From the NCBI GenBank assembly GCA_012178725.1, contig GCA_012178725.1_3030.1: a stretch of 64,000 bases of DNA; one strand, written 5' to 3'. Shown piece by piece: positions 14,842 through 58,504 of the stretch; the first letter of the stretch is position 1, and every line of letters starts with the position of its first letter. Made by a program: the position numbers and the translations under genes. The stretch comes from a phage. The notes under the pieces are model-generated. The model searched no databases. It was not told the DNA's origin and saw nothing but the letters and a program-made list of their open reading frames with translations.

Positions 14842-14982
14842 TTACCATACTAGTGAATGTAGTGCCATAATAACATCAGAAATGAAAAGCACGACTTGAA
14901 TTAATCCGAACATTACTCCATAATATAGTGCTACTAATAAAGTAGCAAGGGCTAATGAATAGCCCAAGATTTTCTTAATCAT
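14842..14982 (-). CDS. Small membrane ORF (46 aa) in the 52.1 position
   Basis: Hand-called MIKKILGYSLALATLLVALYYGVMFGLIQ...; start overlaps the ac stop. Confidence 0.4.
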   Translation of the reverse strand: MIKKILGYSLALATLLVALYYGVMFGLIQVVLFISDVIMALHSLVW

Positions 14983-15133
14983 TAGTAGATAACAACACAA
15001 ATGTTAAATATGCACACATACCCTGGGCTAAAGCTTGCGAAAACACGCTGCTGGCATCAATACAGATAGTTAAAACACATGCTACTATCCAACAAATAAA
15101 TGAAATAACTCCTAATAATTTTGCAATATTCAT
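14975..15133 (-). CDS. ac: Small membrane protein in the ac position (52 aa)
   Basis: Hand-called MNIAKLLGVISFICWIVACVLTIC...; GAGGAAA ribosome-binding site; size and position as T4 ac. Confidence 0.5.
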   Translation of the reverse strand: MNIAKLLGVISFICWIVACVLTICIDASSVFSQALAQGMCAYLTFVLLSTND

Positions 15134-15140
15134 ATTTTCC

Positions 15141-15221
15141 TCACTGGCGTCCGAAGACGCCTTTAGTTTTAAGATTATTACGATAGAACTGCATCACATG
15201 TTCGTTATGGAAATTACTCAT
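15141..15221 (-). CDS. stp: Stp-position 26-aa peptide
   Basis: Hand-called [26 protein letters not shown]; ATG overlaps the ndd stop (TAATG); T4 Stp is 26 aa in this position. Confidence 0.6.
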
Positions 15222-15679
15222 TAATATGCCTGCAAAACAAATTTAAAGTTATCAGCCAACATACGGTTCATTTCTTCAAGTGTTTGATACTCAGAATGAT
15301 GATTACGAGTAAACGCCAAAGCTAACTGACCTTTACCAAATCCTGTCGTCAGAGGTTTCATCTTAGAAGCAGGCAGATAAAATACTGTGTATGGAACATT
15401 GTTATTTGCAATAGTACGTGCAAGCTGAGACCGACGTTGACGAATATGACTTAGAACTGCACTGAATCCTTGCTTAGAACGCTGATTACCTACATAAAAT
15501 CGTGCAGACACACATGGATTACTAAATGGACGACCATCTAATTTACTTACTAAAAAGTAAAATCCAGGTTTAGATAAAATGTCTTTATGCGGAGTTCCCA
15601 AAAACCATTCACCGCCCTTGATTGTGCCAATAACAGTTGCGCCTGCATTATTCAGATCAGTAACAGTCATGTATTTCAT
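15221..15679 (-). CDS. ndd: Nucleoid disruption protein Ndd
   Basis: ORF-track frame trimmed to the [13 protein letters not shown] start (152 aa, GAGGAAA ribosome-binding site); matches T4 Ndd. Confidence 0.9.
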
Positions 15680-15739
15680 ATTAATTTCCTCTAAATTATT
15701 TTCTACTCCAAGGCCGCATGAATACACGCGGCCATTAAA

Positions 15740-15955
15740 TTAATCGTCGCAGTCGACGCTCAATTCCCAAAACTCTTCTACGGTATAAGTTTCAATATCA
15801 TTTTCAATACAGAAACGTTCATTACTATTGTTTGCTAAAGTAGCGTTAACTGTCATTTTCTCGCTGGTACTCTTAAGAGGTGAAATACGAATTAACTGAT
15901 CACCGTTATCTAAACAAAAAATTTCACCAACTTTTACATCTTTAAAACTTTTCAT
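15740..15955 (-). CDS. Hypothetical protein (71 aa), ndd.x region
   Basis: ORF in operon orientation. Confidence 0.55.
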   Translation of the reverse strand: MKSFKDVKVGEIFCLDNGDQLIRISPLKSTSEKMTVNATLANNSNERFCIENDIETYTVEEFWELSVDCDD

Positions 15956-15963
15956 AATTCACC

Positions 15964-16074
15964 TCAAGGAGTATAAAATCCGAATGCAGTTGTTGACCAT
16001 CCCATCCAGTATGGGAAATTTGCACCAATGTAAAACATAAGAATATAAAACCAACCGCTCAGCAAATTCATCAT
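15964..16074 (-). CDS. Hydrophobic micropeptide (36 aa)
   Basis: Hand-called MMNLLSGWFYILMFYIGANFPYWMGW...; ATGA overlap with upstream stop. Confidence 0.35.
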   Translation of the reverse strand: MMNLLSGWFYILMFYIGANFPYWMGWSTTAFGFYTP

Positions 16075-16268
16075 TTTACACCGTTCCAAATTGTTTCAAC
16101 CACGGATTTTAAGCCATTTTGATGAATGTCCATTCCAACTACCGCCATCAAATAGATTCCAACTACAACTGAACCTAAGGCAAAAATCAGCATGAAAATG
16201 AATAAAGCCGGAAAAATATTATCGAAAAACCATTCAATAAATGTAAAAGCACTGCGTTTACGCTTCAT
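16071..16268 (-). CDS. Small membrane protein (65 aa)
   Basis: ORF-track frame trimmed to MKRKRSAFTF start, which has a GAGGA ribosome-binding site; one predicted membrane helix. Confidence 0.5.
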   Translation of the reverse strand: MKRKRSAFTFIEWFFDNIFPALFIFMLIFALGSVVVGIYLMAVVGMDIHQNGLKSVVETIWNGVK

Positions 16269-16275
16269 ATTTTCC

Positions 16276-16389
16276 TCACATAAATCCAAAGTAAACGTTT
16301 AATACATCAATCATTAAAACGATTGGGAATATACTCAAAACAACTAAAATTATAATTATATTCCATATAGCTTTAATAATCTTTTTCAT
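16276..16389 (-). CDS. Hydrophobic micropeptide (37 aa)
   Basis: MKKIIKAIWNIIIILVVLSIFPIV...; GGAGGA 7 nt upstream; the track's 82-aa version begins at a TTG inside the promoter. Confidence 0.45.
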   Translation of the reverse strand: MKKIIKAIWNIIIILVVLSIFPIVLMIDVLNVYFGFM

Positions 16390-16417
16390 TTTGTGTTCCT
16401 CCGTGGTTGATAGGGTA

Positions 16418-16447
16418 ATAATACCACAGAGGAACAGTCTTGTAAAC
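16418..16447 (-). promoter_or_regulatory. Early promoter (GTTTAC-N18-TATTAT)
   Basis: Canonical T4 early promoter architecture directly upstream of the 37-aa ORF. Confidence 0.6.
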
Positions 16448-16696
16448 AACTTTTTTAAAAATATTCGTAATAAATGTGAATACCAATCACTACTGCCGAA
16501 ACTTGCGCAACCCACCACGCACAAGCAATAAGTACAGAATTAAAAATTTTCATAATAACCTCATCACAAAAGTAAATGTTAAACAAATTACTGGAATACT
16601 AATTAACCAAACAAAACACCACCACAATGAACTCATAGTTCAATCTCAGCGATTTTCATTTTATTCTCCAAATCTGTATCAGTATTTGATAGTTGT

Positions 16697-16726
16697 ATAG
16701 TACCACGGTCCTTGTGGTATGTAAAC
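16697..16726 (-). promoter_or_regulatory. Early promoter (GTTTAC-N18-TACTAT) downstream of denB
   Basis: Same architecture and conserved leader CAACTATCAAATACTGATACAGA. Confidence 0.6.
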
Positions 16727-16741
16727 CATTTTGTGAAATTT

Positions 16742-17299
16742 TTAAATGGAAAGATACCATCCATTGTAGTTGCTTTTTCTTACAACCTTACGAAGGTCTT
16801 CTCTATCACCGATGAACTTCGGAGTGTACTGGATGACACCTGGATGAATTTCTTTAGTGTTGAATATAATTATACAGTCCGCGACCTGGTGATTTAGAAT
16901 GGGCCCTAGATTTATTCCAGAACCATATGGATACTCTCCGCTGCATCCTGTTGTTACAGAAATCCAACGTGAGTCAGTTTGATGTGTCTTAACTTCTACA
17001 CGGAGCCCGCAATATTTTGGATGTGCTAAAACATCCCATGCATATGTGTACGGATCATTGACATCTTCTTGGCCTTTATTGACATATCCGCTTAGCCAAT
17101 CTGCTACAAAAAACTCTGCGTACACAGCGATACGGCATCTTTCGATAACTTCTGTCTTATCCTGATTTGGGTTTTGTTTTAAAGAGTATCTTGCAGTATC
17201 AGCAATTTTGACCTTCATTTCACCAGTCAAGTCACTGTTCGATAGGGTAAATGTCGGAATCTGAAATAGTCTCTGTAGCCCCGGATTCGTTTTCTGCAT
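16742..17299 (-). CDS. denB: Endonuclease IV DenB
   Basis: 185-aa ORF in the denB position next to rIIB; size as T4 DenB. Confidence 0.85.
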   Translation of the reverse strand: MQKTNPGLQRLFQIPTFTLSNSDLTGEMKVKIADTARYSLKQNPNQDKTEVIERCRIAVYAEFFVADWLSGYVNKGQEDVNDPYTYAWDVLAHPKYCGLRVEVKTHQTDSRWISVTTGCSGEYPYGSGINLGPILNHQVADCIIIFNTKEIHPGVIQYTPKFIGDREDLRKVVRKSNYNGWYLSI

Positions 17300-17344
17300 T
17301 TAAACTTTCCTTTATGTCGGAATCACTGATATTCATATAATAAA

Positions 17345-17369
17345 TCATAAAACAAAAGGGCCGAAGCCC
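17345..17369 (-). terminator. Intrinsic terminator (GGGCUUCGGCCC plus U-run)
   Basis: On the - strand gggcttcggccc followed by TTTTGTTTTAT, between denB.1 and denB. Confidence 0.65.
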
Positions 17370-58474: not shown

Positions 58475-58504
58475 ATAATACCACGGTTTGAACTTGTTGT
58501 AAAC
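58475..58504 (-). promoter_or_regulatory. Early promoter (GTTTAC-N18-TATTAT)
   Basis: Reverse strand reads GTTTACaacaagttcaaaccgtggTATTAT. Confidence 0.6.

Follow-up and report, generated by a model that had tools for sequence, protein, structure and literature searches.

The closest described counterpart of the locus is the ndd.2–ndd.6 block of phage T4, which occupies the equivalent site on the early strand, flanked by denB and ndd.1, and lies behind the same promoters. All six annotated ndd.2–ndd.6 genes of T4 were classed as early by RNA-seq (PMC9697503, Table S2), while proteomics detected no ndd.2–ndd.6 protein (Class_P = NA) and detected the ndd.1 protein as early (PMC9697503). The saΔ9 deletion, which removes the whole block, is viable and yields about 50% as much phage as the wild type (PMC6071114), and in a CRISPRi-ART knock-down every gene was scored as 'Not Fit', with no fitness cost in the laboratory host of K-12/B background (PMC11879866). 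No function was assigned to any ndd.2–ndd.6 gene in the literature searched. A second point of comparison is the promoter-early stem-loop (PeSL) cassette, in which repeated early promoter/leader modules flank small variable ORFs (Arbiol 2010; Comeau 2014, PMC4122927), and for which T4 ndd.4/.5 versus ORF268/269 of phage PST has been given as an example of exchange (Comeau 2014, PMC4122927).

The window, the whole 64,000-nucleotide stretch of contig GCA_012178725.1_3030.1 that was analysed, belongs to a T4-like phage (Tequatrovirus) and is 95% identical to T4 and 99.9% identical to phage Maryam. The first-pass annotation had described a string of overlapping micro-ORFs between ndd and denB, and five such ORFs together with an ORF of eight codons were found there on the minus strand. 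By position and similarity the five correspond to T4 ndd.6, ndd.5, ndd.4, ndd.2a/ndd.3 and ndd.2, which are already known and represent no new entity. The T4 reference genome (NC_000866) annotates all of ndd.2–ndd.6 at the syntenic place (T4p270-T4p275), and its products share 92-100% amino acid identity with the window peptides. The flagged stretch holds five conserved, early-type phage genes for tiny predicted membrane-helix proteins, and the gene order from denB through ndd.6…ndd.2 to ndd.1 and ndd on the minus (early, counter-clockwise) strand matches that of T4.

Downstream of denB (16742-17299, minus), the eight-codon ORF encoding MKIAEIEL (16633-16659, with the Shine-Dalgarno sequence GGAG at 16666-16669) is followed on the same strand by ndd.6 (16550-16636; 28 aa, MSSLWWCFVWLISIPVICLTFTFVMRLL; phrog_8851, E-value 1.6e-17), ndd.5 (16455-16553; 32 aa, MKIFNSVLIACAWWVAQVSAVVIGIHIYYEYF; phrog_5011, 9.2e-26; Shine-Dalgarno GAGG) and ndd.4 (16276-16389; 37 aa, MKKIIKAIWNIIIILVVLSIFPIVLMIDVLNVYFGFM; phrog_3098, 2.4e-20; Shine-Dalgarno GGAGG). 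These are followed by a single 65-aa gene covering ndd.2a/ndd.3 (16071-16268, minus; DUF7248; phrog_2401, 3.4e-30; Shine-Dalgarno GAGGA) and by ndd.2 (15964-16074, minus; 36 aa, MMNLLSGWFYILMFYIGANFPYWMGWSTTAFGFYTP; phrog_4135, 1.7e-24; weak Shine-Dalgarno). The next genes on the minus strand are ndd.1 (15740-15955; 71 aa; phrog_2183), which encodes a soluble, acidic protein and is included as context only, and ndd (15221-15679). The window peptides match Pfam DUF7248 and PF26889 and PHROGs 4135, 2401, 3098, 5011 and 8851 over their full length and far above threshold; these families catalogue sequences and assign no function, and the labels that they carry in PHROG and GenBank ('outer membrane protein', 'periplasmic protein', 'naphthalene 1,2-dioxygenase') are propagated predictions without support. 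Two further candidates of 28 and 32 aa had been proposed in the interval, which proved to be two of the five ORFs counted twice. The statement that most of the ORFs fall below ORF-caller thresholds was too strong, as four of the five were called in the nearest database record, where ndd.6 alone was missed, and all are annotated in the T4 reference. Genes resembling ndd.6 are often left without annotation in database records.

Two gene models differ from the T4 reference. The reference splits ndd.2a and ndd.3, whereas one 65-aa ORF is present here, in every re-sequenced T4 and in about 465 other records, and this comparison identifies the split as a one-base sequencing error, a G missing after ATGAA. 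T4 ndd.4 is annotated five codons longer from an upstream ATG that is absent from the window (CCACGG versus CTATGG).

Both early promoters proposed for the string were located, and a strict T4-early pattern matched each of them. Promoter P1 (16697..16725, minus) carries TTTACA, a 17-nt spacer and TACTAT with TG upstream of the -10 (9/12 consensus), and P2 (16418..16446, minus) carries TTTACA, a 17-nt spacer and TATTAT, again with TG upstream of the -10 (10/12 consensus). The stricter pattern occurred eight times in the window, always on the minus strand, where shuffled sequences were expected to give 0.22; P1 and P2 are among the eight. Alignment showed that these are the same promoters as in T4, and P1 was kept in all Tequatrovirus loci examined. 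Copies at 13286-13253 and 43583-43525 matched the leaders of P1 and P2 with 88-97% identity, and P2 together with its leader was 88% identical over 59 nt to the early promoter/leader at 43583-43525. These repeated modules resemble PeSL cassettes. In contrast to those cassettes, no convincing stem-loop was found beside either promoter (the folds upstream of P1 and P2 had z=-1.86 and z=-0.34). The claim of early expression agreed with the T4-type early promoters upstream and with the 'early' class of the T4 transcripts.

The P1 unit would comprise the eight-codon leader, ndd.6 and ndd.5, and the P2 unit would comprise ndd.4, the 65-aa DUF7248 gene (ndd.2a/3), ndd.2 and, as its last gene, ndd.1. 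A scan of the minus strand from 15760 to 17355 gave no terminator-like site. A candidate terminator after ndd.1 (15745-15758) was rejected as it folded no better than shuffles (z=-0.56) and lies inside the coding end of ndd.1, and an Rfam search returned two sub-threshold chance matches only. Taken as a whole, the explanation that we consider on balance probable is a T4-type denB-ndd hyperplastic interval with two short early transcription units.

The ORFs had been described as chained by ATGA and TAATG overlaps. Three ATGA stop/start overlaps were indeed found, at the junctions of the eight-codon ORF with ndd.6, of ndd.6 with ndd.5 and of ndd.2a/3 with ndd.2, but the window contains no TAATG overlap, which is present in those relatives where ndd.2 begins a codon further on. 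The other junctions are gaps, those between ndd.4 and ndd.2a/3 and between ndd.2 and ndd.1 being of 7 and 8 nt with the stop codon in or beside the next Shine-Dalgarno sequence, while ndd.5 and ndd.4 are separated by 65 nt with P2 inside. The two ORFs without a good Shine-Dalgarno sequence are ndd.6, which has no strong one of its own and whose start overlaps the stop of the eight-codon ORF, and ndd.2, and the ATG of both overlaps an upstream stop as ATGA. This arrangement would fit termination-reinitiation coupling.

The eight-codon ORF had been listed as a hydrophobic micropeptide candidate. Comparison with relatives instead identifies MKIAEIEL as the last eight codons, and so the remnant, of an 87-aa RB69ORF270c-like gene (phrog_2390 by PHROG match) that is deleted here and in T4, as loci that keep the gene end in ...NEMKIAEIEL* and have an identical ATGA junction to ndd.6. 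The remnant probably serves as a coupling leader for ndd.6, with the coupling preserved after the deletion. The junction that created it coincides with the start codons, where a short ATGAAA repeat occurs, and is not in the promoter, a further difference from PeSL cassettes. The 68-aa and 87-aa soluble genes beside P1 show modular presence and absence across relatives.

The five-gene interval is nearly fixed in Tequatrovirus, with 492 of 599 matching records covering at least 80% of it, and ndd.6 had matches of at least 80% amino acid identity in 494 phage records (tblastn). Dhakavirus and Gaprivervirus carry homologues of ndd.4, ndd.6 and the 65-aa gene: in JS98, VR26 and P479 the ndd.6 and ndd.4 homologues were 44-48% and 61-67% identical, respectively, and VR26 has a 68-aa homologue of the 65-aa gene with 41% identity. 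A divergent contig, L023, carries homologues of ndd.2 (z=9.6), ndd.4 (z=18.8) and DUF7248, and the ndd.6-like match in the most divergent contig was weak. Among the loci examined ndd.5 was confined to Tequatrovirus, and on these comparisons four of the five families, not including ndd.5, persist in other T4-like genera. A word-indexed search with the 65-aa protein returned eight clusters, all T4-like, and an exhaustive search of 1.84 billion representatives returned eight hits, of which P0010, P0007 and P0011 alone seem to be true relatives; P0009, P0012 and P0015, which are very large proteins, seem to match through hydrophobic composition and were rejected. PHROG, Pfam and protein-cluster searches found no sequence similarity of the families outside the T4-like phages. 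Paralogy among the five peptides was also rejected, as control alignments scored no better than shuffles.

Small membrane proteins of T4 such as Imm, Sp, RI and Ac are single-pass or very small hydrophobic proteins that are early and non-essential, and single-pass or very small hydrophobic proteins also include the bacterial regulators AcrZ, MgrB, KdpF and CydX and the type I toxins TisB, Hok and Ibs. Such proteins exert their effects either on larger membrane proteins that they bind or on the membrane itself, which they perturb. We know of no toxicity, target or phenotype for the ndd micro-genes, and the likeness to these proteins concerns a possible mode of action only and carries no claim of membership.

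The peptides had been described as single-helix and hydrophobic, which is clear for four of the five. By the best 19-residue Kyte-Doolittle window, ndd.6, ndd.5, ndd.4 and the 65-aa protein reached 2.2-3.1, with an unambiguous transmembrane segment and charge flanks consistent with single-pass topology, while ndd.2 was borderline at 1.17, under the usual transmembrane threshold and with no charges. The peptides are therefore likely to be inner-membrane single-pass proteins, and for ndd.2 the prediction is evenly balanced. The positive-inside rule predicts an N-in/C-out orientation for ndd.4, ndd.5 and the 65-aa protein, and an inside C-terminus for ndd.6.

The 65-aa protein has a KRKR N-terminus, a predicted transmembrane helix that spans roughly residues 18-45, and a 15-residue C-terminal tail, NGLKSVVETIWNGVK, which is invariant and would face the periplasm in the N-in/C-out orientation. 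It matches DUF7248 (PF23906) with 71.9 bits (curated gathering cut-off 27), residues 6-63 aligning to model positions 4-57 of 58, and its AF2 model is all-helical, with one long helix at residues 19-64 and a mean pLDDT of 78.5. In ndd.4 a cluster of N-terminal Lys residues precedes a predicted transmembrane helix with a conserved Pro, and its homologues are assigned to the precomputed Pfam family PF26889 Phage_T4_Y16N. The single helix of ndd.5 carries a stripe of small residues (A12/A16/A20/G24). The LIAC sequence at residues 8-11 of ndd.5 resembles a lipobox; a lipoprotein appears unlikely, since only ten residues precede the Cys, seemingly too short for a signal peptide. There are no charged and 12 aromatic residues in ndd.2.

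Conservation across T4-like phages had been suggested as a check on the reading frames, and the frames were found to be conserved. The refuting case named in the first-pass annotation, frames not conserved and translation signal lacking, therefore did not hold. All five were open in 18-19 Tequatrovirus loci, the sole exception being a nonsense codon in the 65-aa gene of T2. The pN/pS ratios, derived from related sequences with small counts, were 0.16 for ndd.2, 0.08 for the 65-aa gene, 0.54 for ndd.4 (resting on eight variable sites only), 0.12 for ndd.5, 0.13 for ndd.6 and 0.09 for ndd.1. Pooled variable sites were distributed 22/8/47 over codon positions 1/2/3 (chi-square p=2.5e-7), including 9 of 13 at position 3 in ndd.5 and 15 of 24 in ndd.2. 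The other two frames of the coding strand had pN/pS of roughly 0.3 to >2 and were mostly closed by stops. In phage Sf25, ndd.4 and DUF7248 are fused. This fusion and the T2 nonsense codon, whether they arose in nature or in the laboratory, suggest that selection on single members can be weak.

A regulatory or recombination spacer with AT-rich ORFs open by chance, or with real genes on the plus strand, would account for the promoter/leader cassettes that repeat elsewhere in the genome, for the antisense ORFs 16192-16302 and 16091-16195 that are open in most relatives, and for the lack of any peptide found by mass spectrometry in T4. That lack is expected of 3-7 kDa hydrophobic peptides, but with it the case for their translation is an indirect one. 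The antisense frame that shares third codon positions had pN/pS of 0.13-0.29, which is a mirror effect; this frame contains three to four stops in every gene except ndd.6. Plus-strand genes were rejected, as relatives do not keep the 74-aa and 46-aa ORFs intact and, among the antisense frames, only this stop-containing one has low pN/pS. The peptides are moreover 41-67% identical across genera in which the DNA outside ndd.4 no longer aligns. Judged on these sequence comparisons, the spacer explanation is contradicted by the open frames, the low pN/pS of the annotated minus-strand frames and the excess of third-position changes, and it is barely credible. The same patterns identify the five micro-ORFs as protein-coding genes under purifying selection, and they are very probably translated.

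The peptides would insert as single helices into the host inner membrane in the first minutes of infection, where each would act as an independent accessory factor, binding a host membrane protein or perturbing lipid metabolism through helix-helix contacts. The phage could do without them in laboratory hosts but would profit from them on some natural ones. The chance that their role is modulation of the host envelope, rather than something else, is in our judgement about even. Coupling by ATGA overlaps exactly of ndd.6 with ndd.5 and of DUF7248 with ndd.2 would alternatively point to hetero-oligomeric pairs or a single complex whose stoichiometry is set by the coupling, as would the AxxxAxxxAxxxG stripe of ndd.5, typical of tight helix packing, and the co-occurrence of the five genes in nearly all Tequatroviruses. 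However, JS98 and VR26 carry ndd.6-like genes without ndd.5, VR26 has DUF7248 without ndd.2, and in L023 the ndd.2-like gene is coupled to an ORF270c-like gene instead. A partnership of this kind seems highly improbable.

A role in anti-defence or superinfection exclusion, in which each small membrane protein would block an abortive-infection system associated with the membrane or keep the DNA of a competing phage out, would explain why the peptides matter on some hosts only. The early region is hyperplastic and variable in content, it adjoins the host-interaction genes stp, ndd, denB and rIIB, cassettes are exchanged at the same spot between T4 (ndd.4/.5) and PST (ORF268/269) (PMC4122927), and the lack of a knock-down effect in K-12/B is as expected for host-specific accessory genes. 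Near-fixation of the interval is nevertheless unlike the typical fast turnover of anti-defence cargo, and the variable parts are the neighbouring soluble 68-aa and 87-aa genes. No link to a defence system emerged from experiment or sequence: PHROG and Pfam gave no match with an annotated anti-defence or exclusion function, nor did the literature searched for these genes. The host-takeover or anti-defence role suggested in the first-pass annotation was thus a guess, and we regard an anti-defence or exclusion role as unlikely. That annotation had also called early membrane micropeptides largely uncharacterized, which is right in that these genes have no assigned function (PMC6071114); they were not overlooked, as their annotation dates from the T4 genome and they have PHROG and Pfam families.

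It is quite unlikely, although a published phenotype maps to a deletion that covers the ndd.2–ndd.6 genes, that at least one of the microproteins reprograms host phospholipid synthesis, for example by binding an inner-membrane lipid-synthesis enzyme, so as to give the continued synthesis and the specific stimulation of phosphatidylglycerol seen after infection. According to PMC6071114, phospholipid synthesis is hardly stimulated any more in the saΔ9 deletion (52.1, ac, stp, ndd, ndd.1-ndd.6, denB), and the stimulation specific to phosphatidylglycerol is lost in rIIΔDD2, a deletion that overlaps it in part. Its authors also note that membrane proteins are predicted for several genes in this region, none of them known to act on lipid synthesis. 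Early peptides predicted to insert into the membrane would fit an effect that has been ascribed to a protein synthesised within 5 min. Yet the phenotype maps only to a multi-gene deletion in strains with further mutations, saΔ9 removes denB, ndd, ac and 52.1 just as it removes the micro-genes, and the accessible part of that report does not state the end-points of rIIΔDD2 relative to ndd.6–ndd.2. PHROG, Pfam and exhaustive protein searches found no resemblance of any peptide to a lipid enzyme or known regulator. There is little chance that ndd.2–ndd.6, or a subset in the overlap of saΔ9 and rIIΔDD2, are the long-sought T4 factors that sustain phospholipid synthesis and switch it to phosphatidylglycerol, with lipid-synthesis enzymes of the inner membrane as their direct targets.

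Small early genes with no assigned function number more than 100 in T4 and its relatives, and these five are typical in being tiny, hydrophobic, conserved, dispensable in the laboratory and absent from one T4 proteome study. The practical gains are a clean gene model, in which a single 65-aa DUF7248 gene replaces ndd.2a and ndd.3, and an explanation for the eight-codon ORF. A role for these genes would help to explain how T-even phages remodel the host envelope, and it could resolve the effect on phospholipid synthesis that was first reported in 1968-69 and maps to a deletion containing them.

The five micro-ORFs lie on the minus strand between denB (16742-17299, stop at 16742) and ndd.1 (15740-15955), which is followed by ndd (15221-15679) and stp (15141-15221, 26 aa), all on the minus strand. 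In a database nucleotide comparison, 15200-17300 matched 524 phage records, with Escherichia phage vB_EcoM_Maryam the best match (99.9%) and T4 at about 95%. The T4 reference record already lists ndd.6, ndd.5, ndd.4, ndd.3, ndd.2a and ndd.2 between denB and ndd.1, so the finding is a re-discovery of annotated T4 genes and the set is a known object rather than a new one. The stp gene was intact, with a product identical to T4 Stp, yet is unannotated in the nearest GenBank record. T4 Stp activates the PrrC anticodon nuclease of the host. Two further small hydrophobic ORFs, listed at 52 aa each, lie just downstream of stp (14842-15133, minus strand) and correspond by position to T4 ac and 52.1, so the run of membrane micro-genes continues beyond the flagged interval as far as gene 52.

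The T4-type early promoter P1 (16725-16697) precedes a GGAG Shine-Dalgarno sequence (16669-16666) serving an 8-codon ORF, MKIAEIEL (16659-16633), the TGA of which overlaps the ATG of ndd.6 (16636-16550, 28 aa). The ndd.6 TGA overlaps the ATG of ndd.5 (16553-16455, 32 aa), which has GAGG 5 nt upstream. A 65-nt gap then contains a second T4-type early promoter, P2 (16446-16418), followed by GGAGG and ndd.4 (16389-16276, 37 aa), the stop of which falls within the GAGGA of the 65-aa gene ndd.2a/3 (16268-16071). The latter overlaps ndd.2 (16074-15964, 36 aa), the stop of which adjoins the GAGGTG of ndd.1. The ATGA stop-start overlaps described in the first-pass annotation were present at the 8-codon ORF/ndd.6, ndd.6/ndd.5 and ndd.2a/3/ndd.2 junctions. 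The only ORFs without a good Shine-Dalgarno sequence were ndd.6 and ndd.2, exactly those with an ATG overlapping the upstream stop.

The two claimed early promoters, P1 and P2, both matched a strict pattern derived from the T4 early consensus (TTTAC-N13-17-TGGTAnnWT) and were also found by a generic sigma-70 scan, each with a TG-extended -10. The strict pattern occurred 8 times in the 64-kb window versus 0.22 in shuffled sequence, always on the minus strand (starts at 58503, 43581, 33662, 26363, 20993, 16725, 16446 and 13305) and with a Shine-Dalgarno sequence and ATG downstream. A near-identical transcribed leader (ACAACTATCAACTAC...GGAGG) is common to several of these matches, and the leader sequences that follow P1 and P2 were 88-97% identical to other copies within the window. 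Promoter-leader repeats of this kind have been proposed as mediators of cassette shuffling. Because of the shared leader, ndd.6 and ndd.4 are listed in CRISPRi-ART guide tables as off-targets of guides against the imm.1 and nrdC.8 start regions (PMC11879866). Transcripts of ndd.2,.2a,.3,.4,.5 and.6 were all classed as early by T4 RNA-seq (PMC9697503, Table S2).

Comparison of the window with 21 related loci indicated that the chain is real in substance, the five frames being intact in 18-19 Tequatrovirus loci. The sole exception was in T2 (PV958097; locus L013, 1071-1205), where the 65-aa gene, a member of Pfam DUF7248, is broken by a nonsense codon at position 45. The Nei-Gojobori pN/pS was low in the annotated frame of ndd.2 (0.16), ndd.2a/3 (0.08), ndd.5 (0.12) and ndd.6 (0.13), as in the control genes denB (0.04) and ndd (0.10), while the value for ndd.4 (0.54) rested on 8 variable sites only. 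Variable sites pooled over genes were distributed 22/8/47 over codon positions 1/2/3 (p=2.5e-7). The other two coding-strand frames gave values of roughly 0.3 to >2 and were mostly closed by stops. The antisense frame sharing third codon positions also had low pN/pS (0.13-0.29), but in all except one of the five genes it is broken by 3-4 stops; the low values are a mirror effect of the shared positions. Plus-strand ORFs were rejected as genes, being not conserved or accounted for by that effect, and pairwise alignment rejected the five peptides as mutual paralogues. The ndd.6 peptide was found at >=80% amino-acid identity in 494 records; neither PQ799574, the nearest record, nor OZ209023 has its gene called. 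Another disruption of the DUF7248 gene occurs in Shigella phage Sf25, where gp120 joins the N-terminal half of ndd.4 in frame to the C-terminal half of DUF7248.

The 65-aa gene is split in the T4 reference (NC_000866; locus L004, 3049-3129 and 2933-3055, corresponding to window 16071-16268). Its start there reads ATGAA-CGT versus ATGAAGCGT in every other sequence, and the form with one G missing after ATGAA was confined to X75802, AF158101 and NC_000866. Five independent T4 re-sequencings (T4T (HM137666), KJ477684, KJ477685, OZ209023 and OZ209057) have the extra G, as do about 465 further records from Tequatrovirus. Without it, ndd.3 is an out-of-frame reading and ndd.2a the C-terminal 40 residues of the DUF7248 gene from an internal Met; both names are thus sequencing-error artefacts. 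Many later records have copied ndd.2a in its truncated 123-nt form.

Most Tequatroviruses carry an 87-aa gene (RB69ORF270c-like, phrog_2390) between P1 and ndd.6, ending in ...NSNEMKIAEIEL* with the same ATGA junction as in the window, and some relatives have a 68-aa gene (phrog_4535) beside or in place of it. The slot (16633-16740) is modular, relatives (L002, L005, L010, L012, L013, L017) having the 87-aa gene, the 68-aa gene, both or neither. Having neither, T4 and the window retain no more of the 87-aa gene than its last eight codons. Relative to loci with that gene they lack 237 nt, a loss that joins leader, Shine-Dalgarno sequence and ATGAAA to its last codons, so that MKIAEIEL represents its final eight codons. 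A short ATGAAA repeat at the start codons marks the junction, and PP01 and T2 have the identical remnant downstream of the 68-aa gene. The 8-codon ORF is thus probably a deletion scar, which may persist because ribosomes still reach ndd.6 through it.

Beyond the genus, identity in JS98, VR26 and P479 was 61-67% for ndd.4 and 44-48% for ndd.6, and the ORF270c-like stop still overlaps the ndd.6-like start. The ndd.6-like ORFs (MSS..WC.IW...IP.IC...) of VR26 (L015, 2643-2726; TTG or GTG start), P479 (L016, 2692-2781; likewise) and the more divergent contig L023 (about 1263-1349) are unannotated, with TTG, GTG or ATG start codons that overlap the preceding gene's stop. VR26 has a 68-aa homologue of the 65-aa gene with the C-terminal motif NGLKSVV..IWNG.K. 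Between denB and ndd, L023 has ndd.4-like, ndd.2-like (z=9.6) and DUF7248 genes and a weaker ndd.6-like ORF (z=4.1) in shuffled order. At L023 1453-1885 stop/start coupling links an ORF270c-like gene (ending ...EIIEVEL*) to the ndd.2-like rather than the ndd.6-like gene, a re-assortment of soluble gene and downstream micro-gene partner. Among the loci compared, ndd.5 was found in Tequatrovirus only.

The description of the products as hydrophobic single-helix peptides held for four of them, with best 19-residue Kyte-Doolittle windows of 2.33 (ndd.6), 2.18 (ndd.5), 3.08 (ndd.4) and 2.71 (ndd.2a/3), and less well for ndd.2 (1.17), for which membrane insertion is less certain given no charged residues and 12/36 aromatics. 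By the well-established positive-inside rule, the N-termini of ndd.4 (MKKIIK) and the 65-aa protein (MKRKR) predict an N-in/C-out orientation, which would place the invariant 15-residue tail of the latter in the periplasm. AlphaFold2, given a 7-sequence alignment, modelled the 65-aa protein as helices 5-17 and 19-64 (mean pLDDT 78.5). As read from the sequences, ndd.4, ndd.6 and the 65-aa protein each keep a proline within the hydrophobic segment or at its edge, and ndd.5 has an A12/A16/A20/G24 stripe. The five genes fall in PHROG families 4135, 2401, 3098, 5011 and 8851, and ndd.4 homologues bear the precomputed label PF26889 Phage_T4_Y16N; no function is attached to any of their PHROG or Pfam families. 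Among the 5.8 billion and 1.84 billion proteins searched, no credible relative of the 65-aa protein turned up beyond the T4-like phages.

The literature holds no published function for any of ndd.2-ndd.6. Knock-down of each gene with dCas13d was scored 'Not Fit' (PMC11879866), and a deletion study describes saΔ9 (52.1 through denB) as viable with about half of wild-type phage production (PMC6071114); together these indicate that the ndd block is dispensable. The same study reports that post-infection stimulation of phospholipid synthesis was virtually abolished in saΔ9, and that the phosphatidylglycerol-specific stimulation was lost in the overlapping rIIΔDD2 (PMC6071114). This is the one phenotype mapping to the micro-gene region, and is a lead rather than an assignment since denB, ndd, ac and 52.1 lie in the same region and the strains carry other mutations. 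A link of ndd.2-ndd.6 to lipid synthesis is improbable, while being the most interesting specific possibility, and the host-takeover or anti-defense role suggested in the first-pass annotation is a reasonable guess. The denB-ndd interval is a known hyperplastic region with cassette exchange (PMC4122927); the five micro-genes are nearly fixed in the genus, and gain and loss are confined to the soluble neighbours. Our best guess is that ndd.2-ndd.6 encode early-expressed, translationally coupled, predicted single-pass inner-membrane accessory proteins that would act on the host envelope.
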